A DNA stretch of 64,000 bases from Opitutales bacterium (GCA_965226885.1 CBDDEL010000014.1:430590-494589); one strand, 5' to 3'. Shown: positions 39,986 to 63,597, counted from the first letter of the stretch. Notes: generated by a model from the letters alone, not told the origin. Made by a program: numbers and translations.

Positions 39986-41210
39986 CCCGGATATTTCGTA
40001 AAAAAAGTATCGTTGATATGCTTAACTGCTGATATACAGCAGGATAGATCAATAATTAAAGCAATATCAGCGATGACAAAAGGTAAACAATTAAAGCTAC
40101 AGTTGACAAGGGTAAAAGGCCGCCGTGTGCGGGTTGATTTCAAGGGCGGAGAGGTTACTTCGGATGCCGGACTGCTTTTGATCCGGGAAGTGGATCGGCA
40201 GTTGGGCTTGACCGAACGAGCGGCCCGACAGTTAGTGGACAAACGGCAGAAGGGCAAAGTACGCCATGAGGTATTGGGGATGCTGCGGCAGCGCGTTTAC
40301 GGGCTGGTGGCGGGCTATGAGGATTTGAACGACTTTGATACCCTGCGCCACGATCCATTGTTGCAAACGGTAACGGGGCGCATTGAAACGTTGGCCAGCG
40401 CGCCGACTTTGTGTCGTTTTGAAAACGGGCAGGATCGGCGGGCGGCCTTTGCGGTAAACGAGCTGTTGGTCGAACAGTTCATGGGCTCCTTTGCCGAGGA
40501 ACCCGAAGAGATCATCCTGGACTTTGACGCCACCGACAATCCGGTGCACGGGCTCCAGGAGGGACGTTTTTTCCACGGTTATTATGATCATTACTGTTTT
40601 CTGCCGCTATATGTTTTTTGCGGTGATCAGCTGCTGGTGGCCTACCTGCGGCCGAGCAAGATCGATGCCAGCAAGCATGCCGGGGCCATCCTCAAATTGC
40701 TGGTTAAACGGATTCGCCAAAGCTGGCCCCGTACGCGGATTATTTGGCGCGCCGACAGTGGATTTTGTCGAGACCGGATACTCTCTTGGTGCGACCGCAA
40801 CGAAGTTAGTTACATCGTGGGGATGGCTCGCAATGCACGCTTGCAGCAAGACGCCCAGCAGTTGCAAAAGCAGGCCAAGGAATGGTTCGAACTAAGGGGT
40901 AAAAAACAACGGTTATTCCAGGACTTCGTCTATGCTGCCGATTCGTGGCGATGGCTGCGGTTGGTCATCCATAAAGCCGAACACACCGCACAGGGGTCCA
41001 ACCCGCGCTTCGTGGTGACGAACCTGCCGGGCGATCCCCAGGAGCTTTACGACAAGGTATACTGTGGCCGCGGTGAAATGGAGAACCGAATCAAGGAACA
41101 GATGCAATTGTTCAGCGAGCGCACCAGCGCCCATCAATGGTGGGCCAATCAGTGGCGATTGCTCTTGTCGGCGCTGGCCTACACCTTGATGGAAGCCATG
41201 CGCCGGTTAG
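39986..41210 (+). mobile_element. IS-A copy 3, left 1225 bp
   Basis: Begins with IR cccggatatttc. The transposase reading frame (from 40073) stops matching after ...EAMRRLA, where IS-A copy 4 begins. Confidence 0.9.
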
Positions 41211-42743: not shown

Positions 42744-42747
42744 CTAA

Positions 42748-45727: not shown

Positions 45728-47602
45728 TTAAGATGCCCTTTGCCCTGTGGACGCGCCAAGCGGTGCAAGAGTTGATTGAAAGGCAGTTTGCTTTGAAGAT
45801 GCCGATCCGCACGGTGGGCGAGTATCTTCGCCGTTGGGGTTTCACTCCACAAAAACCTCGAAGACAAGCCTATGAGCAGCAGCCTGAGGCGATTAAGAAG
45901 TGGCTTGATCAAACTTACCCGGCCATCGAAGCCAGAGCCAAAGCGCAACAGGCCCAAATCCACTGGGGAGATGAAACCGGCATCAGTAGCGAAGATCATC
46001 GGGGAAGAGGTTATGCTCCGCGCGGTAAAACGCCAGTTGCCAAACGCAGTGCGCGTCGTTTTAGCACGAGCATGATCTCGACTATAACCAACCGTGGAAA
46101 GCTGCGTTTCATGGTTTACAAGGGAGCCTTGAATGTGGAACTGTTTATCAAATTTCTGCGCCAGTTAATCAAAGGAGCCAAACGGAAAATCTTTCTCATT
46201 GTGGACAATCTGAGAGTGCATCATGCTAAAAAAGTAACCGGTTGGATTGAAGCCCACCGCGATAGGATCGGGATTTTTTATCTACCATCTTACAGTCCCG
46301 AATTGAACCCCGATGAGTATTTGAATAACACGGTCAAAGCCAACTTGAAGAACCTGCCGGCCCCGCGCAGCCAAATTGAGTTGCAGGGAAGTCTGCGAAC
46401 CCACCTGCGCAGCAGGCAACGAAAACCAATTTTGATTAAAAAACTCTTCCATCATCGGGATGTTCAATACGCCGCTTAACTGTTACTATTCAATTGCCGG
46501 ATTAATAGTTTCCTCGGGTTTGATGAGCTTACTCACTGGCCGAGCGATGAGGAATATGTCTATTTGATGTCCCGATTGCGTCGAAAGGCAAATTCGAATA
46601 TCCGCCTGATGATTCGGGCAACCTGCAACCCTTCTGGTCCCGGCCACCATTGGGTAAAGACCCGATTCAATATCTCAAATGACGGCAAGGAAACCGTCGT
46701 AGAAGACCCGCAGACGGGCCTACACCGGGCGTTCCTCCCGGCTCGAATACAAGATAATCCCCATCTCGCCGGAACCGAGTATGAGCGCACCCTTGACGCC
46801 TTGCCTGAGCAACGACGCAAAGCCCTCAAAGATGGGCGCTGGGACGTCTTCGCCGGGGCCATGTTCCCGGAATGGGATCCCACGCGTCACATCATTGAAC
46901 CTTTTGAAATACCCGGCGATTGGAAAAGATGGCGCGGAGCCGATCAGGGCTTTGTGTCGCCCTCTGCCTGCTATTGGTTAGCAAAGAATCAGGATGGACA
47001 GGTAATCGTCTATCAGGAACTCTACCGCACCGGCATGACGGGTCGTGTGTTCGGTGGTGAGGTGTTGAAACGGGACAAAGAGCAAAATCCCTTTGAGAAG
47101 CGCCTATCGGGCTACCTTGATACCAATGCCTTCGCAGATTTAGGAATGGGAACACCGATCGGTCAACTCATGAACCAGATGGGTTGTAGGTGGAGACCCG
47201 TTACGAAAGGCCCCGGGAGTCGTGTAGCCCGTGTAAACATGCTTCACGAGTATCTCGCGCCCATGAAAGGCTTTCCGGACAAGCCGGGATTGCTCTTCTT
47301 TAATACCTGCACAAATCTGGTTCGAACACTGCCTGCACTGCCGAGGAGTCATCATAACCCGGAGGATGTCGACACCGAAGCAGAGGATCACGCGTTTGAC
47401 GGACTTACCTACGGTCTCTGTTACCGGCCTCGAACAGGAAAGGTGACTCATTTTCTTCTTTGAAACTGGTTGCTCCTGTGCGATCATCACAAACTCAGTG
47501 TCCGTAAAACAGTAGTTTTTCAGACATTTCTATTGACACCTGCAATCCCTTTGTTTATGCGGTGTCTCAGTCCACTAAAACAGGGGATGATTTATAGACA
47601 CC

Positions 47603-48190
47603 ATGAAATCGAAGAATATAGCCATTTATTTGAGGGTCTCGACCGGAGGCCAGAATACGGACAGTCAGGCAAAAGTCATTAAGGAATATTGCAAAAGGCG
47701 CGGTTGGAAGGACGTGCAATCCTATGAGGACAAGATCAGCGGTGCCAAACATACACGGCCAGCCCTTGACCGGATGCTTAAAGACGTGCGAAAGGGCGGG
47801 ATCGATGCTGTAGTGGTTTACAAATTGGATCGCTTGGGCCGGTCGCTCACACAGCTCGCCTTAATCATCGAGGAATTAACCAGTCGCGGGGTAGCCCTGA
47901 TTTGCACTTCCCAGGGGATCGATACGAGCGAGAGCAACCCGGCGGGAAAGCTTCAAATGAGCGTTCTCATGGCTGTGGCGGAGTTCGAGCGGGAAATCAT
48001 TCAGGAGCGCGTCAGGGATGGCCTGAGTGCAGCCAGAGCCAGGGGAGTCAAGCTCGGCAGGCCCGGTAAGCTCGCCAAACATCGCAAGAAAGTCATGGCT
48101 TTGCGTAAAAAGGGGAAAAGCATCCGCGCCATAGCCTCAGAGCTACGCTTGCCAGTCTCATCGGTCGGCGATCTGGCAAAGGCTGGATAA
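47603..48190 (+). CDS. Small serine recombinase (resolvase/invertase family, 195 aa)
   Basis: Catalytic N-terminus IAIYLRVSTGGQ, then VVYKLDRLGRS, with a C-terminal HTH (GKSIRAIASELRLPVSSV). Confidence 0.85.
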   Translation: MKSKNIAIYLRVSTGGQNTDSQAKVIKEYCKRRGWKDVQSYEDKISGAKHTRPALDRMLKDVRKGGIDAVVVYKLDRLGRSLTQLALIIEELTSRGVALICTSQGIDTSESNPAGKLQMSVLMAVAEFEREIIQERVRDGLSAARARGVKLGRPGKLAKHRKKVMALRKKGKSIRAIASELRLPVSSVGDLAKAG

Positions 48191-48680: not shown

Positions 48681-49391
48681 ATGCGCCCGAGCGGAGAGCC
48701 TTTATACCTGCAGATTGCGAAAATCCTGCGAGAGGAGATCGAGAATAACTACGAGCCTGGGGATCGACTTGAGCCCGAGGGTAAAATCGCAGAGCGATTC
48801 AGAGTTAACCGGCATACACTGCGTCGCTCTATCGATGAATTGGTTGAGCAGGGCAAGCTGGAGCGACGGGCGGGCGTGGGCGTTTTCGTATTCCTTCATC
48901 CTCTCAAGTATGAGCTGCATAAAGAAACTCGACTAACAAGAAACTTGAGGCGTATGGGAGTTAAAGGTGATCGCACTTTTATCAAACGACAGTTGAAGCC
49001 TGCCTCACAAATTGAGGCCAAGCACTTGCAGATTCCCAAAGGCAGATTAGTTACGCGGCTCGAATCACTGGTTTACGCTGATAAAATTCCTTTTTGCATC
49101 AGCACTCATTGCTTCACTCACAAATCGCACAAAGAGATTTATTCTCTTTTCAAAACCGGTTCCATGCACGAATTCATCAAGAATAAATACAATATCAGGC
49201 TAAGGCGGAAGAGCAGCATGATCAGCGCTTTATTGGCTACCAGTGAAGACGCAGCACTTCTGCGCATCCCATTGAATCGGCCCATTTTACTGGTACAGAC
49301 CGTCAACGTCGATGTGGAATCGAAAAAGCCGTTGGAATACGTGATCAGTCGTTATCGCGCGGATCGGGTAGATTTGATCGTTAATTTTTAG
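48681..49391 (+). CDS. GntR-family regulator of the HutC/PhnF type (winged HTH plus UTRA domain)
   Basis: PLYLQIAKILREEIENNYEPGDRLEPEGKIAERFRVNRHTLRRSIDELVEQGKLERRAGVGVFV, followed by a roughly 150-aa effector domain. Confidence 0.8.
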   Translation: MRPSGEPLYLQIAKILREEIENNYEPGDRLEPEGKIAERFRVNRHTLRRSIDELVEQGKLERRAGVGVFVFLHPLKYELHKETRLTRNLRRMGVKGDRTFIKRQLKPASQIEAKHLQIPKGRLVTRLESLVYADKIPFCISTHCFTHKSHKEIYSLFKTGSMHEFIKNKYNIRLRRKSSMISALLATSEDAALLRIPLNRPILLVQTVNVDVESKKPLEYVISRYRADRVDLIVNF

Positions 49392-50594
49392 ATGTGCGCA
49401 ATCATGGCGCAAAACTTTTTGATGGTGGGAGCAGACTTGGTGCTTCCCCATTCCCTGGTATCAGACTGTCCGCTGTTAATTAAGGGAGAGCGTATTGCGA
49501 GTATCGGCCCCGGCGCCACCCGAAATCCCCAATGCACAGAGATCCGATTGCCGGGAAAAATTATCCTGCCCGGTCTCATCGATTTGCACAGCGATGCGAT
49601 TGAAAAAATGGTTGAGCCACGACCCAAGATATTTTTTCCCATTCCATTTGCTATCAAAGAATGTGATCAGCGGCACCTGACTTGCGGGATTACCACGGTC
49701 TTCAATGCTATTGCGTTTGCCGGAAAAGAGTTCGGCGTTCGAGATCCAAACATTGCGGATCAAATTGTCAGATCGCTTGATAGGGAACCGGCTGTCCTCC
49801 ATCGTCGACTTCACCTGCGCTTTGAAATCACAGACGTCGAGTCTGTTCCCCTAGTGGAAGCCCTAATTCAGGAGGGGAAAGTTGATTTGATCTCCTTTAT
49901 GGATCATAGCCCGGGCCAGGGTCAATACGCCCAGGACGGCAGATATGCCAGTTACCTGATGCGAACTTATGCCATGACCGAACGTGAAGCCCTCAGGCTG
50001 ATTGCGTACAAGAAGGAGAGTCGGCAATCTCGTTCACAAGAAGTAAATGATCGACTGCTCAGAGCCGCAAAGGCCGCCAAAATTCCTATTTCCGGTCATG
50101 ATCTCGACTCACTCGAGAGTGCCAGTGAGTGGCATCAACTTGGAGCCACAATAAGCGAGTTTCCGCTCAATGAAATTTCCGCTCGTGCTTCGCGCGAATA
50201 TGATATGGTGATAGTCATGGGGGCGCCCAACGTCATTCGTGGAGCCAGCTCGGGTGGCGGCCTGCGAGCGAGCGACGGGATTCGCCAGAACCTAATCGAT
50301 GTTCTATGTTCGGATTACAAACCAAATAGCCTATTGCCAGCCCTTTTTAAAGTGTCCTCGGACATTGATATACCTCTTCCGGATGCAGTCTCGTTGGCAA
50401 CCTGGCGGGCAGCCGATGCTGTCGGCTTGACCCATGTCGGAAAACTTGCCGAAGGTTTTCAAGCGGATTTGATTATTGTGCAACCGACGCCACATGGTCC
50501 CCGTCTCGAAGCAGTAATGGTTTCCGGTCAATGGCGATATCTGTCCGGACAATTATCAGATGGGGGGGGGTATGAATCGCAACGAGTTCGATAA
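49392..50594 (+). CDS. PhnM-like amidohydrolase-superfamily protein
   Basis: LPGLIDLHSDAIEKMVEPRPKIFFP and SFMDHSPGQGQY resemble my recollection of the E. coli PhnM motifs (LHTDNLEK..PRP, MDH.PGQRQ). No other C-P lyase genes are visible. Confidence 0.65.
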   Translation: MCAIMAQNFLMVGADLVLPHSLVSDCPLLIKGERIASIGPGATRNPQCTEIRLPGKIILPGLIDLHSDAIEKMVEPRPKIFFPIPFAIKECDQRHLTCGITTVFNAIAFAGKEFGVRDPNIADQIVRSLDREPAVLHRRLHLRFEITDVESVPLVEALIQEGKVDLISFMDHSPGQGQYAQDGRYASYLMRTYAMTEREALRLIAYKKESRQSRSQEVNDRLLRAAKAAKIPISGHDLDSLESASEWHQLGATISEFPLNEISARASREYDMVIVMGAPNVIRGASSGGGLRASDGIRQNLIDVLCSDYKPNSLLPALFKVSSDIDIPLPDAVSLATWRAADAVGLTHVGKLAEGFQADLIIVQPTPHGPRLEAVMVSGQWRYLSGQLSDGGGYESQRVR

Positions 50595-51942
50595 GATTGA
50601 AAAATCCGAGGGAGATGTTAATCTATCTCCACAGCGCCATCAATGGCAGGACCGAAATGTGAATGACCAGACTCGCAACGTGCTGGATGAAGACGCTCGA
50701 TATTTTCTGCATCAATCCTTGTCCACACCCTGTTTGAATGTCTTAACCAAATGTAAGGGATCCTATATAGAAGATTTGCAGGGACGAAAGTACCTGGATT
50801 TTCACGGCAACAACGTGCACCAGGTGGGGTTTGGCAATCCCCATGTCATTGAGGCCATTACCCGGCAGATGGAAGAGCTTTCCTTCTGCACACGGAGATA
50901 TACCAATAAAAAGGCCGTTGAACTAGCCAGGAAATTGACTGAGCTTGCGCCCGGCGATCTAAACCGGGTATTATTTGCTCCGGGCGGCGCCGAAGCCATT
51001 GGCATGGCATTAAAACTGGCGAGGTCCTATACCGGCAGATTCAAAAGCATCTCCATGTGGGATTCGTTTCACGGCGCCTCTCTGGACGCTATCTCGGTCG
51101 GCGGAGAAGCGATTTTCCGCAAAAACATCGGCCCGTTGCTGCCGGGTGCCGAACATGCGCCACCGCCGGATCCTAAGCATTGTGTATTCGGATGTGAAGG
51201 AGAGTGCAATTTACGCTGTGCCCAATACGTAGAATACATGCTGGAAAAGGAAGGAGATGTCGCCGCGGTTATTGCCGAGACCGTCCGCAGCACGCCATAT
51301 ATACCGGATAAAAAATATTGGCAAATTATCCGCAAAGCTTGTCACAAACACGGTGCATTATTAATTTTGGATGAGATTCCCCATTGTCTGGGCCGAACCG
51401 GTACCTTTTTCACATTCGAGCATTTTGGGATTGTCCCGGATATGGTTGTCATCGGGAAAGGACTCGGTGGGGGTATTTTTCCGCTGGCGGCGTTAATCGC
51501 CAGAGAAGAACTCAACATTGCCGGTAAAAATGCCTTGGGTCATTATACTCATGAAAAAAATCCGGTCGCCAGCGCCGCCTCCCTGGCTGCCATCCAATAT
51601 ATCGAGGAGAACCGGTTGCTGGACCATGCCAAACAGATGGGCAACTATGCTCTTGAGCGCTTAAAGGCGCTCAAACTGAGGCATCGCATCATTGGCGATG
51701 TCCGTGGAATCGGATTATTGATGGGGATAGAAATTGTTAGAGATACCGGCCAACGGGGTGTGGAAGAGGCTGAGAAAATCATGTACCATGCCCTCGAAAT
51801 GGGTCTAAGTTTCAAAGTAACCATGGGCAATATCCTCACTTTGACTCCGGCATTGACAATTACCCGAGGTGAGATCGATCAAGCGATCGATATTCTGGAT
51901 GACTGTTTTGAACGAGTGGGGCATGGGCATGACATGAGCTAA
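50572..51942 (+). CDS. Class-III (fold type I) PLP-dependent aminotransferase-family enzyme
   Basis: FAPGGAEAIGMALKLAR, LILDEIPHCLGRTG and VVIGKGLGGG (putative Schiff-base Lys). Overlaps the preceding gene by 23 nt. Confidence 0.8.
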   Translation: MNRNEFDKIEKSEGDVNLSPQRHQWQDRNVNDQTRNVLDEDARYFLHQSLSTPCLNVLTKCKGSYIEDLQGRKYLDFHGNNVHQVGFGNPHVIEAITRQMEELSFCTRRYTNKKAVELARKLTELAPGDLNRVLFAPGGAEAIGMALKLARSYTGRFKSISMWDSFHGASLDAISVGGEAIFRKNIGPLLPGAEHAPPPDPKHCVFGCEGECNLRCAQYVEYMLEKEGDVAAVIAETVRSTPYIPDKKYWQIIRKACHKHGALLILDEIPHCLGRTGTFFTFEHFGIVPDMVVIGKGLGGGIFPLAALIAREELNIAGKNALGHYTHEKNPVASAASLAAIQYIEENRLLDHAKQMGNYALERLKALKLRHRIIGDVRGIGLLMGIEIVRDTGQRGVEEAEKIMYHALEMGLSFKVTMGNILTLTPALTITRGEIDQAIDILDDCFERVGHGHDMS

Positions 51943-52158
51943 AATTCGTCACCTAAATAGAGGCTGTCCCAAAAGGGTGATTTTTGCGAGGGCTTTTGAT
52001 AGGCGCTCATTTTAGAGGTATTTGCATTTGGGAGAGTATCAACTTTGCTCTCCTATGACGTTAGGATACTGGTTTTGGGGTCCGGTTGCCTGGTATTCTT
52101 TGTATGAGCCGACAGTAAGGCTGTGAAAAAGTATTGTCCTTGCTTTTCCGCTCTCTAG

Positions 52159-53736
52159 CCCGGATATTTCATGAAGGGTAAAGTTTGGCTCGTGTTTGGC
52201 TCGTTATTGCTATTGGAGATGGATTTCTTTGTATTTTGAGCAGATCGTCTTGATTTTTAGGTGTTTTTCAGGGTGTAGAGACACTGCCCCCTTTCCCCCA
52301 TTGGTTCGGTAGTGCCGGGGGCAGCACCAATGCACCCTTTAGGTTGGCACCAATCGGCGGGCCGCATGGTTGAAAAGACTGGCCCAAGGATAACTCTCAC
52401 TTAGGTGAAAGTGAATCGTTCGGGTGTTGCGCACGATGACCGCTCCGATCTTGATTAATTTGAGCCGCAGGGTGTGCCATTGGGCCCGCGCCCACTTCGT
52501 CCCTTTTAAGGCTAACCGGCGCATGGCTTCCATCAAGGTGTAGGCCAGCGCCGACAAGAGCAATCGCCACTGATTGGCCCACCATTGATGGGCGCTGGTG
52601 CGCTCGCTGAACAATTGCATCTGTTCCTTGATTCGGTTCTCCATTTCACCGCGGCCACAGTATACCTTGTCGTAAAGCTCCTGGGGATCGCCCGGCAGGT
52701 TCGTCACCACGAAGCGCGGGTTGGACCCCTGTGCGGTGTGTTCGGCTTTATGGATGACCAACCGCAGCCATCGCCACGAATCGGCAGCATAGACGAAGTC
52801 CTGGAATAACCGTTGTTTTTTACCCCTTAGTTCGAACCATTCTTTGGCCTGCTTTTGCAACTGCTGGGCGTCTTGCTGCAAGCGTGCATTGCGAGCCATC
52901 CCCACGATGTAACTAACTTCGTTGCGGTCGCACCAAGAGAGTATCCGGTCTCGACAAAATCCACTGTCGGCGCGCCAAATAATCCGCGTACGGGGCCAGC
53001 TTTGGCGAATCCGTTTAACCAGCAATTTGAGGATGGCCCCGGCATGCTTGCTGGCATCGATCTTGCTCGGCCGCAGGTAGGCCACCAGCAGCTGATCACC
53101 GCAAAAAACATATAGCGGCAGAAAACAGTAATGATCATAATAACCGTGGAAAAAACGTCCCTCCTGGAGCCCGTGCACCGGATTGTCGGTGGCGTCAAAG
53201 TCCAGGATGATCTCTTCGGGTTCCTCGGCAAAGGAGCCCATGAACTGTTCGACCAACAGCTCGTTTACCGCAAAGGCCGCCCGCCAATCCTGCCCGTTTT
53301 CAAAACGACACAAAGTCGGCGCGCTGGCCAACGTTTCAATGCGCCCCGTTACCGTTTGCAACAATGGATCGTGGCGCAGGGTATCAAAGTCGTTCAAATC
53401 CTCATAGCCCGCCACCAGCCCGTAAACGCGCTGCCGCAGCATCCCCAATACCTCATGGCGTACTTTGCCCTTCTGCCGTTTGTCCACTAACTGTCGGGCC
53501 GCTCGTTCGGTCAAGCCCAACTGCCGATCCACTTCCCGGATCAAAAGCAGTCCGGCATCCGAAGTAACCTCTCCGCCCTTGAAATCAACCCGCACACGGC
53601 GGCCTTTTACCCTTGTCAACTGTAGCTTTAATTGTTTACCTTTTGTCATCGCTGATATTGCTTTAATTATTGATCTATCCTGCTGTATATCAGCAGTTAA
53701 GCATATCAACGATACTTTTTTTACGAAATATCCGGG
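52159..53736 (-). mobile_element. IS-A copy 6, inserted at the stop codon of the IS-B transposase
   Basis: Both IRs present. Direct repeat ctag (52155-52158, 53737-53740). Carries an 11-bp tandem duplication (52183-52204). Confidence 0.95.
52339..53649 (-). CDS. IS1380-family DDE transposase (two substitutions vs consensus: R to W, C to W)
   Basis: Intact ORF. Confidence 0.8.
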   Translation of the reverse strand: MTKGKQLKLQLTRVKGRRVRVDFKGGEVTSDAGLLLIREVDRQLGLTERAARQLVDKRQKGKVRHEVLGMLRQRVYGLVAGYEDLNDFDTLRHDPLLQTVTGRIETLASAPTLCRFENGQDWRAAFAVNELLVEQFMGSFAEEPEEIILDFDATDNPVHGLQEGRFFHGYYDHYCFLPLYVFCGDQLLVAYLRPSKIDASKHAGAILKLLVKRIRQSWPRTRIIWRADSGFCRDRILSWCDRNEVSYIVGMARNARLQQDAQQLQKQAKEWFELRGKKQRLFQDFVYAADSWRWLRLVIHKAEHTAQGSNPRFVVTNLPGDPQELYDKVYCGRGEMENRIKEQMQLFSERTSAHQWWANQWRLLLSALAYTLMEAMRRLALKGTKWARAQWHTLRLKLIKIGAVIVRNTRTIHFHLSESYPWASLFNHAARRLVPT

Positions 53737-55220
53737 CTAGGCCGCCGCTTTGGTTTTTAGTTCGTCTTGCTGGGCCAGCATCTTGGCTACTTTCCATAGG
53801 TTGTGCGAGAGTACCGACCAGGCTACGCTGATCGAGCGGTTGGCAAAGCCTTTGCTGCGCAACCGCCCGGCCTGCCAGCGATTCTTCAATACCCCGATCC
53901 GCCCTTCGGTGCTGGCCCGGCGCTTTTGCAATTGTCTGAACAGTGGTTCCTCCATCCGTTTTTTCAACTGCTTCGGATCGCGTGGACAGAGCGCGTCGTA
54001 GATTCCCTCCTGGGCTAACTGCCGGCGGGCCCGCTGGGAGGCAAATCCCCGGTCCGCGCACATGGCCGCTATGGGTTCTTCCAGGTTGAAGCGGTTCTGT
54101 CTTTGCAAACTCTCTTGCATTTGTTCATTTTCGCTTGGAGTTCGGCTGCCGTAGAGTTTCCAGTCCAGCAGGTACCCTTCAACGCTTTCTCCCAAAAACA
54201 GGGTGTTGCCGAACTCGACCTCTTGGCCCGCTTTACCTCGCACAATCACCTGCCCATCGAGTTCGTAAACACTCAAGACTTTCTCTGCGTTTTTCACCTG
54301 GCGGCCGCCAATGATCCGCTCGTGCGCCTGTTTGATGACCACCGGGATTTGCTCGCTCATGCGCTCCATCCGGGCGAGGATCTGTTGGACCTGTTTTTCG
54401 CTGTAATCGCTTTGCTCCCAGCAGGCTTGCAATAATTCCCGGTGACTGCGGGCATGCTCCCCGATCCGTTTGAGCAGCTTTTTCATCTGCCTCAAGATAC
54501 CCTTGCGCTGCCGCGCGCTGTCCTTTCGCCGCCGGCTGTGGGTCATCTGTATGCACAGCCGATTCATCTGCCGAGCCAAGGGCTCCGGTTCGATCGGCAT
54601 GCGATGGCGCAAACCGGCCTTCTCGCGGATCAGCCGGATCGCTTTGAGCAACGTGCCGGCTACATCCTTGAGTAATACCCAGTCCGTCGGCCAATGAATG
54701 TTAGCCTCCAAACAGGTGCCGTCGATCAGGCAAATGGTGGTGTCAATCGGCTTGTCCAATCCCACCTGCCGGGCCAGAAGGGCATCGCCCACCACCTCAG
54801 TCAAGGTCCGGTGCAAGGCCCTCAACTGCTCTTCGCTGAAAAACTTCGAGGCCCGCTCCAGGGTGCTTTTGGAGATGCCCCTGATGCCATCGATCTGCCG
54901 GACACGGCAAAAGTCGGCCAACAGATCGCTGCTGCCCAGAGCCCGCGACAAATGCCGAAACGAGATCCCTCCGAGCAGACGGCCCAGCGTATCCATGCGC
55001 AGTGTGCCTTGATGGCAAAACTGGCCCGCTGCCGCCGGGCCTTTAGACCCATTGGCTGCCACCCCTCCAAGGCCAGCTCAATGGCCTGCGATTCCACCTC
55101 CGAGTCGATCAGCAGCCGATCGATTCGATCAATGGTGGCGCGGAAGTTATCGTAATCGAGGCACCGGTCAACCACAGTTAAAGCTGGACGCAGGAGGCAT
55201 TGGATGGCTATATTTTTCAT
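53737..55220 (-). pseudogene. IS-B transposase, frameshifted by a 2-nt (tg) duplication at 55003-55006
   Basis: Split into ORFs 53737-55062 and 54822-55220. The sequence gcagtgtgcctt replaces gcagtgcctt of the other copies. Confidence 0.85.
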
Positions 55221-55436
55221 AGAAAGGGCTATATTGATTTTCGCTAACTCAATTATAGAACCCTTTTTTGGCCGGATCGAGCAAAAACTTGCTCTTTCCG
55301 GCTCTTTTTATCAACGTCATCCAGTTGACTATAAAATCTTTATATTTTTGGGACAGCCTCTAAATAGGTGGCCCACGGCCCCATTGATCTCGCTACGGCG
55401 AAAAAGCGAATATTTAAAAAATTAACAAAACAAACT

Positions 55437-57134
55437 ATGAATTCTAGTTTAAGTATCCTGATCCACGTTTTAACCATAATTATGCTGGGAATATATTCTA
55501 TGCCCATTTATGGCGATCCGCTATTCGCTGATCTTGTAGTAACCAATGCGAATGTAATCACGGTTGATAAAGACCAATCGCAAGCGGAAGCATTTGCGAT
55601 TCGAGATGGAATATTTGTCGCTGTGGGTACGAATGGCGACGTTAGATCGCTGATTGGCAAGAATACTACGGTCATCGAGGCAGAAGGCAAAACGATTACA
55701 CCTGGTTTCATCGATGTCCACCTTCATCCCAGGTCGATATACTTATGGACGCACAGGTTAGGCAGTGTCGATTTGTCACCCGCCGCCGTCAAAACAATGG
55801 AGGGACTTGTTGCTGCCTTAAAAGCCAAAGCGGAAATAACGCCGAAGGGACAATGGATTCGGGGAAGTCGTTACCAGGGCACTAAATTGGGTCGAAGTCC
55901 CAACCGCTGGGATTTAGATCGGGCATCTACCGATCATCCCATCTGGATTGGCCATTCGAGCGGTCATTTAAGCGTCGTAAACTCGTACGCTTTGCGGGCG
56001 GCAAACATCACTCAGGATACACCGGATCCGCCTGGTGGAGCATTCGATCGCGATGATAGCGGGGAACCGAATGGAATCTGCCGCGAAGGCGCCGGAGGGC
56101 TTGTTCGAGATGGCGGCCCCCCCATGCCGGAAGCTTCCCGCAAAGAAGAACTGGAGGGTTATCAACGTTGTTTCCACGAGTTCATGCGAAAAGGAATTAC
56201 CAGCATTGGCGATGCCGGCGTTAATCCAGGTAAAATCCGTGTATATCAGGAATTGGTCGAAGCAGGAATGCCGCTTCGCATCAACATGATGATTCGTGAA
56301 AAATATTTTCCCGATTTGAAAAAGTTGAACATTCACACGAAGTTTGGAAACAGCCGGCTAAAAATCGGTCCGATTAAAGTGCGCCATGGAAATTCATTAT
56401 CCGGCCGCACATGTTGGTTGTACGAACCCTACGAGAGGATAAATCCGAGAACTGGCAAAAAGGATTACTATGGAATACCGCCTGCACGGTCGCAGGAAAA
56501 ACTAACTGAATTGTTCAGCGATATTCATGCAGCGGGTTTTCAAATCGCCGTTCATTCCAATGGCGACCGGGAAATCGATATGGTGCTTAATGCCATCGAA
56601 AAAGCCTTGCAGAAAACGCCGCGAGAAGATCATCGGCACAGGATCGAACACTGCAGCATAGTAAGCGACCGTATTCTCCAACGGATCAAGGATCTGGGGG
56701 TTGTATTAGCTCTTCATTCTTATATCTACGAACACGGGGACAAAATGGAAGAATACGGTGAAAGGCGTTGGAACATGATGCACGCCAACCGGTCGGCCCT
56801 GGATTTGGGCATCGTTGTGGCTGGCAACTCCGATTACGGCGTCAGCGCGGCCGATCCGATGCTGCGGATTCAGAGTTTAGTAACACGCAAATCAGCGGAA
56901 GGCAAAGTCTATGGAGCCAAACAAAAAATCTCTGTCCAGGAAGCGCTCTGGATTTGGACTATGGGAAGCGCGTTGGCCTCGTTTGACGAAAAGATCAAAG
57001 GCTCGATTACCAACGGAAAACTGGCCGATTTCGTGATGCTCACGGATGATCCAACTCATACCCCACTTGACTTTATAAAGGATATCAAGGTCGAAAAAAC
57101 TTTTATCGGAGGGAAGCTGGTTTTTGAACGTTAA
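55437..57134 (+). CDS. Amidohydrolase-3 (YtcJ-like) metal-dependent hydrolase with N-terminal signal/anchor
   Basis: ADLVVTNANVITVD...AFAIRDGIFVAVG...GKTITPGFIDVHLHP, HSNGD, and a C-terminal GSITNGKLADFV motif. Confidence 0.75.
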   Translation: MNSSLSILIHVLTIIMLGIYSMPIYGDPLFADLVVTNANVITVDKDQSQAEAFAIRDGIFVAVGTNGDVRSLIGKNTTVIEAEGKTITPGFIDVHLHPRSIYLWTHRLGSVDLSPAAVKTMEGLVAALKAKAEITPKGQWIRGSRYQGTKLGRSPNRWDLDRASTDHPIWIGHSSGHLSVVNSYALRAANITQDTPDPPGGAFDRDDSGEPNGICREGAGGLVRDGGPPMPEASRKEELEGYQRCFHEFMRKGITSIGDAGVNPGKIRVYQELVEAGMPLRINMMIREKYFPDLKKLNIHTKFGNSRLKIGPIKVRHGNSLSGRTCWLYEPYERINPRTGKKDYYGIPPARSQEKLTELFSDIHAAGFQIAVHSNGDREIDMVLNAIEKALQKTPREDHRHRIEHCSIVSDRILQRIKDLGVVLALHSYIYEHGDKMEEYGERRWNMMHANRSALDLGIVVAGNSDYGVSAADPMLRIQSLVTRKSAEGKVYGAKQKISVQEALWIWTMGSALASFDEKIKGSITNGKLADFVMLTDDPTHTPLDFIKDIKVEKTFIGGKLVFER

Positions 57135-57282
57135 TCCGGAATTCGCAGTTATGGATGGTGGCGATGTGAGGTTTGAGAGGCGGGATGAGGGCAAAGACTT
57201 CTTACCCGGCAATAACTTGTAGTTGCCGCTACTTGACCTATCGGACAGCGTCAGATAACCTGAAACCACTATTGTTATGTTA

Positions 57283-59116
57283 GAGGCTGTCAGGCTGTCC
57301 CAAAAGGGTGATTTTTGCGAGGGCTTTTGATAGGCGCTCATTTTAGAGGTATTTGCATTTGGGAGAGTATCAACTTTGCTCTCCTATGACGTTAGGATAC
57401 TGGTTTTGGGGTCCGGTTGCCTGGTTTTCTTTGTATGAGCCGACAGTACGGCTGTGAAAAAGTATTGTCCTTGCTTTTCCGCTCTCTAGGCCGCCGCTTT
57501 GGTTTTTAGTTCGTCTTGCTGGGCCAGCATCTTGGCTACTTTCCATAGGTTGTGCGAGAGTACCGACCAGGCTACGCTGATCGAGCGGTTGGCAAAGCCT
57601 TTGCTGCGCAACCGCCCGGCCTGCCAGCGATTCTTCAATACCCCGATCCGCCCTTCGGTGCTGGCCCGGCGCTTTTGCAATTGTCTGAACAGTGGTTCCT
57701 CCATCCGTTTTTTCAACTGCTTCGGATCGCGTGGACAGAGCGCGTCGTAGATTCCCTCCTGGGCTAACTGCCGGCGGGCCCGCTGGGAGGCAAATCCCCG
57801 GTCCGCGCACATGGCCGCTATGGGTTCTTCCAGGTTGAAGCGGTTCTGTCTTTGCAAACTCTCTTGCATTTGTTCATTTTCGCTTGGAGTTCGGCTGCCG
57901 TAGAGTTTCCAGTCCAGCAGGTACCCTTCAACGCTTTCTCCCAAAAACAGGGTGTTGCCGAACTCGACCTCTTGGCCCGCTTTACCTCGCACAATCACCT
58001 GCCCATCGAGTTCGTAAACACTCAAGACTTTCTCTGCGTTTTTCACCTGGCGGCCGCCAATGATCCGCTCGTGCGCCTGTTTGATGACCACCGGGATTTG
58101 CTCGCTCATGCGCTCCATCCGGGCGAGGATCTGTTGGACCTGTTTTTCGCTGTAATCGCTTTGCTCCCAGCAGGCTTGCAATAATTCCCGGTGACTGCGG
58201 GCATGCTCCCCGATCCGTTTGAGCAGCTTTTTCATCTGCCTCAAGATACCCTTGCGCTGCCGCGCGCTGTCCTTTCGCCGCCGGCTGTGGGTCATCTGTA
58301 TGCACAGCCGATTCATCTGCCGAGCCAAGGGCTCCGGTTCGATCGGCATGCGATGGCGCAAACCGGCCTTCTCGCGGATCAGCCGGATCGCTTTGAGCAA
58401 CGTGCCGGCTACATCCTTGAGTAATACCCAGTCCGTCGGCCAATGAATGTTAGCCTCCAAACAGGTGCCGTCGATCAGGCAAATGGTGGTGTCAATCGGC
58501 TTGTCCAATCCCACCTGCCGGGCCAGAAGGGCATCGCCCACCACCTCAGTCAAGGTCCGGTGCAAGGCCCTCAACTGCTCTTCGCTGAAAAACTTCGAGG
58601 CCCGCTCCAGGGTGCTTTTGGAGATGCCCCTGATGCCATCGATCTGCCGGACACGGCAAAAGTCGGCCAACAGATCGCTGCTGCCCAGAGCCCGCGACAA
58701 ATGCCGAAACGAAATCCCTCCGAGCAGACGGCCCAGCGTATCCATGCGCAGTGCCTTGATGGCAAAACTGGCCCGCTGCCGCCGGGCCTTTAGACCCATT
58801 GGCGGCCACCCCTCCAAGGCCAGCTCAATGGCCTGCGATTCCACCTCCGAGTCGATCAGCAGCCGATCGATTCGATCAATGGTGGCGCGGAAGTTATCGT
58901 AATCGAGGCACCGGTCGACCACAGTTAAAGCTGGACGCAGGAGGCATTGGATGGCTATATTTTTCATAGAAAGCATAGAAAGGGCTATATTGATTTTCGC
59001 TAACTCAATTATAGAACCCTTTTTTGGCCGGATCGAGCAAAAACTTGCTCTTTCCGGCTCTTTTTATCAACGTCATCCAGTTGACTATAAAATCTTTATA
59101 TTTTTGGGACAGCCTC
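57283..59116 (-). mobile_element. IS-B copy 4, with an intact ORF but duplications in one IR and at the start codon
   Basis: 7-bp direct repeat tatgtta (57276-57282, 59117-59123). 8-bp duplication aggctgtc x2 inside the IR (57284-57299). 9-bp duplication catagaaag x2 (58965-58982). Confidence 0.9.
57486..58967 (-). CDS. IS-B DDE transposase (IS4/IS5 superfamily, about 493 aa)
   Basis: DGTCLEANIHWPTDWVLLKD, CADRGF, and the C-terminal RRASTEGRIGVLK motif (R-x3-E-x6-K). The precise family (IS1634-like or IS1182-like) is not resolved. Confidence 0.8.
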   Translation of the reverse strand: MKNIAIQCLLRPALTVVDRCLDYDNFRATIDRIDRLLIDSEVESQAIELALEGWPPMGLKARRQRASFAIKALRMDTLGRLLGGISFRHLSRALGSSDLLADFCRVRQIDGIRGISKSTLERASKFFSEEQLRALHRTLTEVVGDALLARQVGLDKPIDTTICLIDGTCLEANIHWPTDWVLLKDVAGTLLKAIRLIREKAGLRHRMPIEPEPLARQMNRLCIQMTHSRRRKDSARQRKGILRQMKKLLKRIGEHARSHRELLQACWEQSDYSEKQVQQILARMERMSEQIPVVIKQAHERIIGGRQVKNAEKVLSVYELDGQVIVRGKAGQEVEFGNTLFLGESVEGYLLDWKLYGSRTPSENEQMQESLQRQNRFNLEEPIAAMCADRGFASQRARRQLAQEGIYDALCPRDPKQLKKRMEEPLFRQLQKRRASTEGRIGVLKNRWQAGRLRSKGFANRSISVAWSVLSHNLWKVAKMLAQQDELKTKAAA

Positions 59117-59184
59117 TATGTTAACGACCACTCCAACAAAGACAGACATTGGCTGTTGGGTCAGATCCTGACTTTTACAGGTTA

Positions 59185-59946
59185 ATGGCGATGGACTACG
59201 ATCAAACAACAATTCCTGAATCCTACAAGAAGGGACGCGAAATAGGGGACGCGGGACTAGCTCTGTGGATGGATGCGATTGAACGGCACATCGATCCTTC
59301 TGAGATTGAGTCGATTCTTGATTTGGGATGTGGAACAGGAAGGTTTTCTGAAGCTTTGTCAGAGCGGTTTGATGCACGACTGATCGGGATTGATCCGTCT
59401 ACCAGAATGCTGACGCAGGCAATCGAGTCTTTGGTGGGGGAAAGGTTCGTATTCAAAAAGGGATCGGCAGAAGATATTCCGATTGGTGACGGAACGGTGG
59501 ATTTGGTTTTCCTTTCAATGGTATGGCACCACATTGTGGATGTTGACCGCGCATTGCAGGAATTCCAAAGAGTGTTGAGAAATGGTGGTTACGCGTGTGT
59601 GCGCAACCCAACAGTGGAATTATTGAATCGGGCTGCATTTTTGGATTATTTCCCGGGAGCAGGGGTTGTCGATTTGGAAATGCTACCATCTGCATATAAT
59701 CTGAAGAGCGTCTTTTCAGACCAAGGATTTGATTTGATCGCCCACGATGTGATCGAAAGTGAATTTGCCGAGAATTTCCAAGCGATGTATGAGAAGGTTA
59801 AGCATCGAGCATTATCTGAGCTTGCGGCGATTTCGGATGATGAATTTTCGACTGGGTTGAAAAGCATGGCTGCGGATTTGAAAAAGGAATCGAATCTGGA
59901 GCCGATTATTGAGCCGATTGACCTGTTCGTCTATCGCATGGGGTGA
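59185..59946 (+). CDS. Class I SAM-dependent methyltransferase
   Basis: Motif I ILDLGCGTGRFS and post-I LIGIDPS, then DLVFLSMVWHH. Confidence 0.75.
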   Translation: MAMDYDQTTIPESYKKGREIGDAGLALWMDAIERHIDPSEIESILDLGCGTGRFSEALSERFDARLIGIDPSTRMLTQAIESLVGERFVFKKGSAEDIPIGDGTVDLVFLSMVWHHIVDVDRALQEFQRVLRNGGYACVRNPTVELLNRAAFLDYFPGAGVVDLEMLPSAYNLKSVFSDQGFDLIAHDVIESEFAENFQAMYEKVKHRALSELAAISDDEFSTGLKSMAADLKKESNLEPIIEPIDLFVYRMG

Positions 59947-60020: not shown

Positions 60021-60110
60021 GGCCGGATCGAGCAAAAACTTGCTCTTCAAGTCTATTCTTATAAACGTCATATAATTGAGTACAAAATCTTTATATTTTT
60101 TGACAGCCTC
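60021..60110 (-). mobile_element. Diverged solo right-end fragment of an IS-B-like element (about 90 bp)
   Basis: ggccggatcgagcaaaaacttgctc...atctttatattttttgacagcctc aligns at roughly 80 percent with the IS-B transposase-proximal end. Confidence 0.7.
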
Positions 60111-60593
60111 TAATTAGAGGCTGTCCCAAAAGGGTGATTTTTGCGAGGGCTTTTGATAGGCGCTCATTTTAGAGGTATTTGCATTTGGGAGAGTATCAAC
60201 TTTGCTCTCCTATGACGTTAGGATACTGGTTTTGGGGTCCGGTTGCCTGGTTTTCTTTGTATGAGCCGACAGTACGGCTGTGAAAAAGTATTGTCCTTGC
60301 TTTTCCGCTCTCTAGGCCGCCGCTTTGGTTTTTAGTTCGTCTTGCTGGGCCAGCATCTTGGCTACTTTCCATAGGTTGTGCGAGAGTACCGACCAGGCTA
60401 CGCTGATCGAGCGGTTGGCAAAGCCTTTGCTGCGCAACCGCCCGGCCTGCCAGCGATTCTTCAATACCCCGATCCGCCCTTCGGTGCTGGCCCGGCGCTT
60501 TTGCAATTGTCTAAACAGTGGTTCCTCCATCCGTTTTTTCAACTGCTTCGGATCGCGTGGACAGAGCGCGTCGTAGATTCCCTCCTGGGCTAA

Positions 60594-62160
60594 CCCGGAT
60601 ATTTCATGAAGGGTAAAGTTTGGCTCGTTATTGCTATTGGAGATGGATTTCTTTGTATTTTGAGCAGATCGTCTTGATTTTTAGGTGTTTTTCAGGGTGT
60701 AGAGACACTGCCCCCTTTCCCCCATTGGTTCGGTAGTGCCGGGGGCAGCACCAATGCACCCTTTAGGTTGGCACCAATCGGCGGGCCGCATGGTTGAAAA
60801 GACTGGCCCAAGGATAACTCTCACTTAGGTGAAAGTGAATCGTTCGGGTGTTGCGCACGATGACCGCTCCGATCTTGATTAATTTGAGCCGCAGGGTGTG
60901 GCATTGGGCCCGCGCCCACTTCGTCCCTTTTAAGGCTAACCGGCGCATGGCTTCCATCAAGGTGTAGGCCAGCGCCGACAAGAGCAATCGCCACTGATTG
61001 GCCCACCATTGATGGGCGCTGGTGCGCTCGCTGAACAATTGCATCTGTTCCTTGATTCGGTTCTCCATTTCACCGCGGCCACAGTATACCTTGTCGTAAA
61101 GCTCCTGGGGATCGCCCGGCAGGTTCGTCACCACGAAGCGCGGGTTGGACCCCTGTGCGGTGTGTTCGGCTTTATGGATGACCAACCGCAGCCATCGCCA
61201 CGAATCGGCAGCATAGACGAAGTCCTGGAATAACCGTTGTTTTTTACCCCTTAGTTCGAACCATTCTTTGGCCTGCTTTTGCAACTGCTGGGCGTCTTGC
61301 TGCAAGCGTGCATTGCGAGCCATCCCCACGATGTAACTAACTTCGTTGCGGTCGCACCAAGAGAGTATCCGGTCTCGACAAAATCCACTGTCGGCGCGCC
61401 AAATAATCCGCGTACGGGGCCAGCTTTGGCGCATCCGTTTAACCAGCAATTTGAGGATGGCCCCGGCATGCTTGCTGGCATCGATCTTGCTCGGCCGCAG
61501 GTAGGCCACCAGCAGCTGATCACCGCAAAAAACATATAGCGGCAGAAAACAGTAATGATCATAATAACCGTGGAAAAAACGTCCCTCCTGGAGCCCGTGC
61601 ACCGGATTGTCGGTGGCGTCAAAGTCCAGGATGATCTCTTCGGGTTCCTCGGCAAAGGAGCCCATGAACTGTTCGACCAACAGCTCGTTTACCGCAAAGG
61701 CCGCCCGCCGATCCTGCCCGTTTTCAAAACGACACAAAGTCGGCGCGCTGGCCAACGTTTCAATGCGCCCCGTTACCGTTTGCAACAATGGATCGTGGCG
61801 CAGGGTATCAAAGTCGTTCAAATCCTCATAGCCCGCCACCAGCCCGTAAACGCGCTGCCGCAGCATCCCCAATACCTCATGGCGTACTTTGCCCTTCTGC
61901 CGTTTGTCCACTAACTGTCGGGCCGCTCGTTCGGTCAAGCCCAACTGCCGATCCACTTCCCGGATCAAAAGCAGTCCGGCATCCGAAGTAACCTCTCCGC
62001 CCTTGAAATCAACCCGCACACGGCGGCCTTTTACCCTTGTCAACTGTAGCTTTAATTGTTTACCTTTTGTCATCGCTGATATTGCTTTAATTATTGATCT
62101 ATCCTGCTGTATATCAGCAGTTAAGCATATCAACGATACTTTTTTTACGAAATATCCGGG
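60594..62160 (-). mobile_element. IS-A copy 7
   Basis: Both IRs present. Direct repeat ctaa (60590-60593, 62161-62164). Confidence 0.95.
60763..62073 (-). CDS. IS1380-family DDE transposase (one substitution, I to M)
   Basis: Intact ORF. Confidence 0.8.
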   Translation of the reverse strand: MTKGKQLKLQLTRVKGRRVRVDFKGGEVTSDAGLLLIREVDRQLGLTERAARQLVDKRQKGKVRHEVLGMLRQRVYGLVAGYEDLNDFDTLRHDPLLQTVTGRIETLASAPTLCRFENGQDRRAAFAVNELLVEQFMGSFAEEPEEIILDFDATDNPVHGLQEGRFFHGYYDHYCFLPLYVFCGDQLLVAYLRPSKIDASKHAGAILKLLVKRMRQSWPRTRIIWRADSGFCRDRILSWCDRNEVSYIVGMARNARLQQDAQQLQKQAKEWFELRGKKQRLFQDFVYAADSWRWLRLVIHKAEHTAQGSNPRFVVTNLPGDPQELYDKVYCGRGEMENRIKEQMQLFSERTSAHQWWANQWRLLLSALAYTLMEAMRRLALKGTKWARAQCHTLRLKLIKIGAVIVRNTRTIHFHLSESYPWASLFNHAARRLVPT

Positions 62161-63597
62161 CTAACTCCCAGCGGGCCCGCTGGGAGGCAAATCCCCGGTC
62201 CGCGCACATGGCCGCTATGGGTTCTTCCAGGTTGAAGCGGTTCTGTCTTTGCAAACTCTCTTGCATTTGTTCATTTTCGCTTGGAGTTCGGCTGCCGTAG
62301 AGTTTCCAGTCCAGCAGGTACCCTTCAACGCTTTCTCCCAAAAACAGGGTGTTGCCGAACTCGACCTCTTGGCCCGCTTTACCTCGCACAATCACCTGCC
62401 CATCGAGTTCGTAAACACTCAAGACTTTCTCTGCGTTTTTCACCTGGCGGCCGCCAATGATCCGCTCGTGCGCCTGTTTGATGACCACCGGGATTTGCTC
62501 GCTCATGCGCTCCATCCGGGCGAGGATCTGTTGGACCTGTTTTTCGCTGTAATCGCTTTGCTCCCAGCAGGCTTGCAATAATTCCCGGTGACTGCGGGCA
62601 TGCTCCCCGATCCGTTTGAGCAGCTTTTTCATCTGCCTCAAGATACCCTTGCGCTGCCGCGCGCTGTCCTTTCGCCGCCGGCTGTGGGTCATCTGTATGC
62701 ACAGCCGATTCATCTGCCGAGCCAAGGGCTCCGGTTCGATCGGCATGCGATGGCGCAAACCGGCCTTCTCGCGGATCAGCCGGATCGCTTTGAGCAACGT
62801 GCCGGCTACATCCTCGAGTAATACCCAGTCCGTCGGCCAATGAATGTTAGCCTCCAAACAGGTGCCGTCGATCAGGCAAATGGTGGTGTCAATCGGCTTG
62901 TCCAATCCCACCTGCCGGGCCAGAAGGGCATCGCCCACCACCTCAGTCAAGGTCCGGTGCAAGGCCCTCAACTGCTCTTCGCTGAAAAACTTCGAGGCCC
63001 GCTCCAGGGTGCTTTTGGAGATGCCCCTGATGCCATCGATCTGCCGGACACGGCAAAAGTCGGCCAACAGATCGCTGCTGCCCAGAGCCCGCGACAAATG
63101 CCGAAACGAAATCCCTCCGAGCAGACGGCCCAGCGTATCCATGCGCAGTGCCTTGATGGCAAAACTGGCCCGCTGCCGCCGGGCCTTTAGACCCATTGGC
63201 GGCCACCCCTCCAAGGCCAGCTCAATGGCCTGCGATTCCACCTCCGAGTCGATCAGCAGCCGATCGATTCGATCAATGGTGGCGCGGAAGTTATCGTCAT
63301 CAAGGCACCGGTCGACCACAGTTAAAGCTGGACGCAGGAGGCATTGGATGGCTATATTTTTCATAGAAAGGGCTATATTGATTTTGATTTTCGCTAACTC
63401 AATTATAGAACCCTTTTTTGGCCGGATCGAGCAAAAACTTGCTCTTTCCGGCTCTTTTTATCAACGTCATCCAGTTGACTATAAAATCTTTATATTTTTG
63501 GGACAGCCTCTAATTACGGACTGCCGTTTCATCGCATCAGGATGAAGCGGTCCGGTAGGTGCAATTCCCCTCAACTCAAGCGATGAGAGAAATGCGA

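Follow-up and report, generated by a model that had tools for sequence, protein, structure and literature searches.

Background

The only role known for PhnM lies inside the multi-protein carbon-phosphorus (C-P) lyase pathway, in which it acts as the ribosyl-methylphosphonate-triphosphate (RPnTP) diphosphatase, and second or orphan phnM copies have been noted in surveys (PMC9381506). Other components of phosphonate catabolism, the phosphonate breakdown factors PbfA-D, PbfF and PbfG, were recently discovered through unexplained genes that recur in phosphonate clusters. PbfA, described in phnWX and phnWYA clusters, converts (R)-1-hydroxy-2-aminoethylphosphonate (R-HAEP) to phosphonoacetaldehyde (PAA) and ammonia, as shown for the Vibrio splendidus enzyme (PMC8154272), and PbfG oxidises 2-hydroxyethylphosphonate (HEP) to the same aldehyde, with pbfG-phnX clusters reported from Verrucomicrobiota and Planctomycetota (PMC13576164). 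Here we analyse a 64,000-nucleotide stretch of DNA from Opitutales bacterium (GCA_965226885.1, CBDDEL010000014.1:430590-494589), hereafter the window, in which the gene for a PhnM-like protein follows a phnF-type regulator gene and is itself followed by pbfA and by genes for a YtcJ-type amidohydrolase and a methyltransferase, a PhnM homologue thus joining PhnF in the setting of PAA clusters. An earlier note, made from this sequence alone, had read the five genes as a module, possibly for an uncharacterised route that includes a PhnM-like hydrolase and a class-III aminotransferase-fold enzyme, a reading that our analysis supports in part. In the papers searched on PbfA, PbfB-D, PbfF and PbfG we found no mention of a PhnM-like protein, PhnF or the amidohydrolase, and a literature search returned no paper that describes a clade of the PhnM family associated with both PhnF and PAA-type clusters, or the sequence signature reported below.

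Results

A PhnM-family clade outside C-P lyase operons

The interpretation that we favour, at a probability of about 0.55, sees the region as an accessory cassette under the control of PhnF that serves hydrolytic, PAA-type phosphonate catabolism without C-P lyase, set in a mobile-element-rich stretch of an Opitutales-like genome and split by insertion sequences (ISs) in its intergenic spacers. Its central component is the PhnM-like protein. As established by comparison of sequences and gene neighbourhoods, this protein belongs to a small clade that branched from the PhnM of C-P lyase, stayed joined to phnF while losing its phnGHIJKL neighbours, and now resides in clusters that yield PAA.

That the protein is a real member of the PhnM family was borne out by profile searches. 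It passes the NCBIfam models NF011990 (subfamily; 349 bits, cutoff 233) and NF011984 (equivalog; 282 bits, cutoff 260), falls under the cutoffs of TIGR02318 (333.5 bits, cutoff 390.55) and NF011989 (371 bits, cutoff 565), and is 35% identical over its full length to E. coli PhnM and 42-44% identical to operon-encoded PhnMs. The LHSDAIEK..PRP and MDHSPGQGQY motifs on which the earlier note had relied are both present, and both are PhnM motifs family-wide. All presumed metal or catalytic residues are retained (H56, D58, E135, D161-H162, H226-D227, E246 and D298). Identity as a dipeptidase or deacylase was considered and rejected, the PhnM models matching at E values of 1e-99 to 1e-111 as against about 1e-11 for other amidohydrolase families.

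For comparison within the family, 196 PhnM homologues were taken from the fetched loci, designated here by L numbers, and labelled by genomic context. The window protein and its close relatives are identical to the canonical sequences at 56 of the 66 columns that are conserved at 93% or more in 134 operon-encoded PhnMs. The clade has substitutions of its own. In the most striking, Leu or Phe takes the place of the Asp of the (A)SHDD motif (E. coli D231), changing HDD to HDL or HDF in each of the five clade sequences; the 191 homologues outside the clade (134 from operons, 37 second copies and 20 further orphans) all have Asp here. In another, the His after strand 2, found in 131 of 134 canonical sequences, is Asn in the clade. 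The AlphaFold model of the protein has an amidohydrolase TIM-barrel fold (predicted local distance difference test score 94), and, judged by its secondary structure, both of these positions would fall at the C-terminal ends of barrel strands, the location of the active site in amidohydrolases. A fold search with the model returned generic amidohydrolase neighbours (NagA, dihydroorotase; template modelling (TM) score ~0.65, 12-17% identity), which confirms the predicted amidohydrolase fold and gives no clue to the substrate. A sequence search of the PDB found no solved PhnM structure.

The clade is very rare. An exhaustive HMMER search of 1.84 billion cluster representatives yielded one sequence at 60% identity and the next at no more than 44%, and the clade as a whole amounts to a single 50%-identity cluster of ~11 known sequences among 15 billion. 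In a neighbour-joining tree it is monophyletic, with its nearest canonical relatives coming from Planctomycetota and Chloroflexota. A scan with one genome per species gave 80 loci, 79 of them at 37-44% identity; these 79 are C-P lyase loci, except for a fragment too short for its context to be read (L073). The best database matches at 42-44% (P0006, P0009 and P0129) likewise sit in phnGHIJKLM operons. A metagenome scan with the clade alignment produced no new clade members, all of the matches listed being at or below 44% identity, and a plasmid search found nothing above 39%.

The genomic context of the clade rests on three independent lineages, those of the window, L002 and L004. The window lineage has the five-gene order given above. 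In L002, whose PhnM-like protein is 60% identical to that of the window, phnF and the phnM-like gene are accompanied by a TDH-like zinc alcohol dehydrogenase, a GlpT/AepP-like MFS transporter, a PhnX-like HAD hydrolase and further genes, with a 63%-identical copy of the cassette amidohydrolase 8 kb downstream. In L004 (48% identity), phnF and the phnM-like gene are convergent with phoD, a zinc alcohol dehydrogenase, a bona fide phnX (313 bits, cutoff 220) and phnDCE. The dehydrogenases of these two loci are of the TIGR03366 type, scoring just under its cutoff, and correspond to PbfG. In both, then, the partners of the PhnM-like protein are PhnF, a PbfG-type alcohol dehydrogenase and PhnX or a PhnX-like enzyme, not PbfA. 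The pairing of a PhnM-like gene with a class-III gene, which the earlier note had taken as the core of its proposed route, turned up only in near-identical relatives (93-100% identical proteins, about 93-100% DNA identity). By contrast, phnF stands directly upstream of the phnM-like gene, with a gap of 0-30 nt, in every clade locus whose context could be read. Since the PbfA pairing is restricted to one lineage and the other neighbours vary, the conserved unit is phnF plus the phnM-like gene; judged from their family assignments, its variable partners are all enzymes that generate or consume PAA. As the earlier note had observed, no phnGHIJKL genes accompany the PhnM-like gene: there are none in the 64-kb window and none within 10 kb of any clade member (L002, L004, L005 and L006).

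The constancy of this pair could also be taken to mean that the PhnM-like protein and PhnF process a signal, the hydrolase making or destroying the effector of the repressor instead of performing a catabolic step, by analogy with NagA beside the HutC-type NagR. The regulator is indeed the strictly conserved partner while the catabolic neighbours vary, the pair in L004 would form a transcription unit of its own, convergent with a phoD-pbfG-phnX-phnDCE operon, and the closest solved folds are those of NagA deacetylases. The likeness to NagA, however, exists at the level of the fold only, and in the window and L002 the pair is co-directional with, and overlaps, catabolic genes. We regard a signal-processing role of this kind as quite improbable.

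PhnM genes outside the usual operon position were also seen beyond the clade. A separate group of orphan phnM genes was seen in metagenome loci (L129 6702-13287, L147 6813-13259, L108, L097 and L120/L124). The order there is phnC-phnD-(E)-phnM, followed by a gene for an unannotated protein of 670-694 aa, and phnGHIJKL are absent within 10 kb; these PhnMs retain the canonical HDD motif and fall outside the window clade. Burkholderiales C-P lyase loci (Cupriavidus, Bordetella and Achromobacter; L009, L011-L013, L017, L024-L025, L029 and about 25 more) carry a second, divergent PhnM copy with the motif HDDP, 30-35% identical to the window protein. Located near position 3000 on the minus strand, it adjoins phnN and phnF and is divergent from phnGHIJKLM.

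PbfA and the relation to C-P lyase

The class-III gene scores 700 bits against the PbfA model NF049939 (cutoff 525; profile positions 1-441 of 442), also matches Pfam Aminotran_3 (positions 8-402 of 403), and its translation carries the pyridoxal phosphate (PLP)-lysine motif VIGKGLGGG. With PbfA as its top match, above cutoff, identity as a true transaminase was rejected; the caveat of the earlier note, that an enzyme of this fold might be a lyase, was right. By family assignment it is established as a PbfA, and is thus predicted to remove ammonia from R-HAEP, giving PAA. Since the supposed aminotransferase belongs to the PbfA family, part of the proposed route is known chemistry (PMC8154272). 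A tblastn search found no homologues of PhnX or of phosphonate transporters in the 64-kb window, and Pfam searches of its other open reading frames (ORFs) showed no phosphonate genes.

A canonical phnW-pbfA-phnX cluster on a metagenome contig (L115 14653-18217), directly downstream of a complete C-P lyase operon, encodes a PbfA with 61% identity to that of the window.

Such proximity bears on the question of whether the PhnM-like protein is simply an ordinary RPnTP diphosphatase that serves a C-P lyase encoded elsewhere, its adjacency to pbfA being incidental clustering under a shared PhnF. The side-by-side arrangement of both cluster types in L115 fits this explanation, as do the two NCBIfam PhnM models passed, the 56 of 66 canonical columns and the full set of ligand motifs. 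Nevertheless, phnG-L are absent from the 64-kb window and from the 10 kb around the pair in L002 and L004, the closest canonical operons all carry a phnM of their own, and the score lies below the TIGR02318 cutoff. Moreover, the clade is monophyletic, and it alone lacks an Asp that every one of the 191 homologues outside it has, whether operon copy, second copy or orphan. An unaltered PhnM serving a distant C-P lyase thus seems unlikely to us.

An ancestral array split by insertion sequences

The history of the cassette can be read from an IS-free relative, L006, a metagenome contig from ENA with 93-99% protein identity to the window. In L006, phnF, the phnM-like gene, pbfA, the amidohydrolase gene and the start of the methyltransferase gene are directly contiguous, the amidohydrolase gene beginning 88 nt downstream of pbfA. 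The sole difference across the array is that the window has two insertions of IS-B, an IS5/ISNCY-like element, both in intergenic spacers, so that no coding sequence is broken. Because L006 is contiguous and the window departs from it only by these insertions, the five genes constitute one ancestral array, and their grouping is not due to chance. Two independent IS-B insertions had been postulated between pbfA and the amidohydrolase gene; there are indeed two, but only one lies there, the second having entered after the amidohydrolase gene (Table 1). The closest named genome is an Opitutales bacterium metagenome-assembled genome (L007), at 94% protein identity.

Homology between the window and L006 begins only at window position 48589, which places the left edge of the cassette at about 48589. 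To the left of this point the window has a resolvase gene and IS630-type and IS1380-type transposase genes, and L006 has an IS3 element, so that the cassette sits among mobile elements. Copies of the ISs were mapped by blastn self-comparison, and their insertion sites by comparison with L006. IS-B is 1834 bp long, with terminal inverted repeats GAGGCTGTCCCAAAA and target-site duplications (TSDs) of 6-7 bp, and its transposase stays below the NCBIfam family cutoffs (ISNCY_1, 207 bits, cutoff 325; IS5_1, 118 bits, cutoff 275). The IS1380 element has the ends CCCGGATATTTC and a 4-bp TSD, CTAG, its junctions having been checked against the intact IS-B copy; its transposase is above the cutoff of NF033539 transpos_IS1380 (414 bits, cutoff 180).

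The window as a whole contains at least seven copies of the IS1380 family and at least five IS5/ISNCY-like copies, repeatedly nested, which occupy 10314-11898, 12230-14035, 32285-33864, 38466-42746, 44185-45742, 51960-55360, 57283-59116 and 60109-63510. Insertions of IS1380 are found at two distinct positions of IS-B, and in one case IS1380 truncates the IS-B copy.

The exported amidohydrolase

The amidohydrolase of the cassette matches PF07969 with 313 bits (profile positions 2-472 of 472), and its N-terminus is hydrophobic (MNSSLSILIHVLTIIMLGIYSMPIYG), in keeping with the signal anchor ascribed to it by the earlier note. The nearest PDB entries, 3icj and 3igh, are uncharacterised metal-dependent hydrolases, and homologues are named "predicted amidohydrolase YtcJ" by the Joint Genome Institute. 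Homologues of this type with 60-73% identity are abundant across Planctomycetota, Poribacteria and Acidobacteria, and those in L002, L172 and L175 (63-73% identical) are linked to pbfA or the phnM-like gene. The linkage to pbfA thus recurs in two further lineages. In L172, residues 29-233 of PbfA (75% identity) and 79-587 of the amidohydrolase (73%) survive as an in-frame fusion, a 696-aa ORF (9911-12091); flanked by IS91-type transposase genes, this remnant is a decayed copy of the pbfA-amidohydrolase pair in another lineage. In L175 (1-11995), PbfA (69%) and the amidohydrolase (65%) are encoded 6 kb apart, in the order PbfA, a GSA-aminomutase-like aminotransferase, a citryl-CoA-lyase-like protein, a SauS-like acylating aldehyde dehydrogenase (481 bits, cutoff 600), a malonyl-CoA-decarboxylase-like protein, the amidohydrolase and a TonB-dependent receptor, a cluster that possibly represents a CoA-dependent fate for PAA.

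A label of dedicated phosphonate enzyme for the YtcJ-type family was rejected, its contexts being heterogeneous (L173, L174).

Selection on the cassette, its regulator and its methyltransferase

The ratio of nonsynonymous to synonymous substitution rates (dN/dS) of the phnM-like gene is 0.38 between the window and L006 and 0.18 between the window and L007; the corresponding values for phnF are 0.22 and 0.11, and those for pbfA and the amidohydrolase gene against the relatives are 0.12 and 0.17. These ratios indicate that all of the cassette genes measured are under purifying selection, which is most relaxed in the phnM-like gene.

The same data speak to the idea that phnF and the phnM-like gene are the relic of a C-P lyase operon after deletion of phnGHIJKL, the PhnM-like protein having no current role and the cassette being in decay. 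Operons of the Planctomycetes-Verrucomicrobia-Chlamydiae (PVC) type are ordered phnF-(G)HIJKL-M (L048, L058, L059, L066), and a deletion of G-L would therefore yield exactly the junction of phnF with phnM. The region is saturated with IS elements, the pbfA-amidohydrolase fusion in L172 has decayed, and the phnM-like gene has the highest dN/dS of the cassette. Even so, this value stays below 1, three lineages that are down to 48-60% identity still have intact ORFs with every catalytic residue in place, the IS elements struck spacers only, and both the junction with phnF and the 23-nt overlap with pbfA are conserved. A decaying remnant is, in our judgement, highly improbable.

The regulator is established as being of the PhnF type by family assignment: it matches Pfam GntR (55 bits) and UTRA (92 bits) as well as TIGR02325 C_P_lyase_phnF (201 bits, cutoff 156.8), and shares 36% identity with E. 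coli PhnF. An inverted-repeat operator shared upstream of phnF by the window, L006, L002 and L004 was not found. The methyltransferase matches no NCBIfam equivalog and no homologue of it was found near the other clade loci, so that it is assigned to the module solely by its adjacency in the window lineage.

Layout of the window

The five ORFs described by the earlier note were all found on the plus strand, and Pfam and NCBIfam confirm every family (Table 1). The stop codon of phnF had been said to be followed immediately by the start of the phnM-like gene; an ATG does exist there, at 49392, but the N-termini of homologues favour the start at 49404, so that the gap is 0-12 nt. The 23-nt overlap reported between the phnM-like gene and pbfA matches the pbfA start listed, and the same overlap is seen in L006. 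Scans of the sequence for promoter-like sites (15, with 12.1 expected from shuffled sequence) and terminator-like sites (7, with 15.1 expected) performed no better than chance.

Table 1. Cassette genes and adjacent mobile elements, in window coordinates
Feature	Coordinates	Strand	Remarks
Serine recombinase (resolvase), left flank	47603..48190	+	Pfam Resolvase, 156 bits
phnF-type GntR/HutC transcriptional regulator, 236 aa	48681..49391	+	Pfam GntR and UTRA; NCBIfam TIGR02325
PhnM-like amidohydrolase-superfamily metallohydrolase, 396 aa	49404..50594	+	Alternative in-frame ATGs at 49392 and 49422
pbfA (class-III PLP gene)	50572..51942	+	Alternative start at 50560; NCBIfam NF049939, Pfam Aminotran_3
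IS-B copy 1 (IS5/ISNCY-like DDE element)	51960..55360 (about)	-	17 nt past the pbfA stop; TSD TAAATA; absent at the L006 site
IS1380-family element nested in IS-B copy 1	52159..53736 (about)	-	Transposase 52339-53709; TSD CTAG
YtcJ-type Amidohydro_3 metallohydrolase, 565 aa, N-terminal signal peptide or anchor	55437..57134	+	ORF open from 55368; PF07969
IS-B copy 2, intact	57283..59116	-	Transposase 57486-58976; TSD TATGTTA; amidohydrolase/methyltransferase spacer; absent at the L006 site
Class-I S-adenosylmethionine-dependent methyltransferase, 253-265 aa	59185..59946	+	ORF open from 59149; Pfam Methyltransf_11/25/31
IS-B copy 3 with nested IS1380 (about 60595-62154)	60109..63510 (about)	-	Right cassette flank; IS1380 at a different site

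Three further genes of the window may be mentioned. A 299-aa ORF without a Pfam match (46564-47463) lies a short way upstream of the cassette, with an IS630-type transposase fragment on one side and the resolvase gene on the other, and is found upstream in L005 too. The D-2-hydroxyacid dehydrogenase encoded at 19217-20293 belongs to PF02826, the Pfam family of the HAEP racemase PbfF; its neighbours are GDP-mannose dehydratase, epimerase and PfkB-kinase genes, it is 29 kb from the cassette, and it is probably unrelated to it. The ORF at 29902-32304, which encodes 800 aa with three CHASE3 domains and one HAMP domain, stops where an IS1380 copy (32285-33864) starts, and is probably a sensor protein truncated by the IS1380 insertion.

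Discussion

If the region is an accessory cassette for PAA-type catabolism, a division of labour among its products can be proposed. The exported YtcJ-type amidohydrolase would probably act on an extracellular or periplasmic precursor. In the cytoplasm, the PhnM-like protein would keep its metal centre and still hydrolyse a bond at phosphorus, and its pocket would be altered by the replacement of Asp by Leu or Phe beside the His-Asp ligand pair and of His by Asn after strand 2, its substrate probably being different from that of PhnM; most likely it would free or pre-process a phosphonate from an anhydride or ester conjugate. PbfA would supply PAA from R-HAEP, and the aldehyde would then be cleaved by PhnX or PhnY/PhnA encoded elsewhere. 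Candidate substrates for the PhnM-like protein are a phosphonate-phosphate anhydride, or a phosphonate ester of HAEP, HEP or 2-aminoethylphosphonate (AEP). In the boldest version, the protein may act on PAA itself, which would explain a pbfA cassette without phnX.

More tentatively, and at rather less than even odds, the PhnM-like clade would represent a new phosphonate-catabolic hydrolase outside the C-P lyase pathway, one that has kept the binuclear-metal chemistry and turned to another phosphorus substrate, and that together with the YtcJ-type amidohydrolase would form an undescribed upstream branch of the hydrolytic pathways.

Several observations weigh against the accessory-cassette interpretation and what is built on it. 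Neither the cassette nor the 64-kb window encodes a C-P-cleaving enzyme (PhnX, PhnA or PhnZ) or a transporter, and known chemistry offers the cassette no way of releasing phosphate by itself. Context could be read in only three independent lineages of the clade, with the PhnM-like and PbfA pairing confined to one of them, and in L004 phnF and the phnM-like gene stand apart as a unit in convergent orientation. Members of the large YtcJ-type family are found in unrelated settings as well (L173, L174), which makes the link between pbfA and the amidohydrolase suggestive, not defining. The phnM-like gene is the one with the highest dN/dS in the cassette. Finally, with 42-44% identity to bona fide PhnM and nearly all conserved residues kept, the protein could have an unchanged RPnTP diphosphatase activity, and a C-P lyase operon without phnM may be present elsewhere in the genome.

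Should the substrate prove to be new, the hydrolytic phosphonate routes would gain an enzyme, and the clade would exemplify the re-use of a C-P lyase component. It would also follow that the automatic annotation "RPnTP diphosphatase", and the use of phnM as a marker of C-P lyase in metagenomes, can mislead. The practical weight of this is limited by the rarity of the clade. Resting as it does on three lineages, the PhnM-like protein is a concrete and testable enzyme lead with a clear sequence marker, and the linkage of pbfA to an exported amidohydrolase, together with the CoA-type pbfA cluster in L175, provides further leads.

Set against the described systems, the locus shares features with each of four. 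With the PhnM of the E. coli phnCDEFGHIJKLMNOP operon, the clade has in common the family, the fold, the HxD, MDHSPGQGQ, HD and SDY motifs and the position of PhnF upstream; it differs in its lack of phnGHIJKL neighbours, its rarity, the substitutions in HDD and after strand 2, and its PAA-pathway neighbours. The second and orphan phnM copies (PMC9381506), as in the Burkholderiales and the phnCDE-phnM metagenome loci, are likewise PhnM homologues that do not follow phnL, but they keep HDD, fall outside the window clade, are 30-40% identical to the window protein and have other neighbours. The phnW-pbfA-phnX and phnW-pbfA-phnYA clusters (Zangelmi et al. 2021, PMC8154272) resemble the cassette in having a PbfA above the model cutoff, an accessory enzyme that feeds an AEP-related phosphonate into PAA, whereas the window has no phnW, phnX, phnY or phnA and has PhnF, the PhnM-like protein, the YtcJ-type amidohydrolase and the methyltransferase instead. 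The pbfG-phnX clusters (Piazza et al. 2026, PMC13576164), lastly, are matched in type by L002 and L004, with their TDH-like zinc alcohol dehydrogenase, PhnX or PhnX-like enzyme and transporter and no phnW, while the window differs in having PbfA in place of PbfG, and no PhnX.

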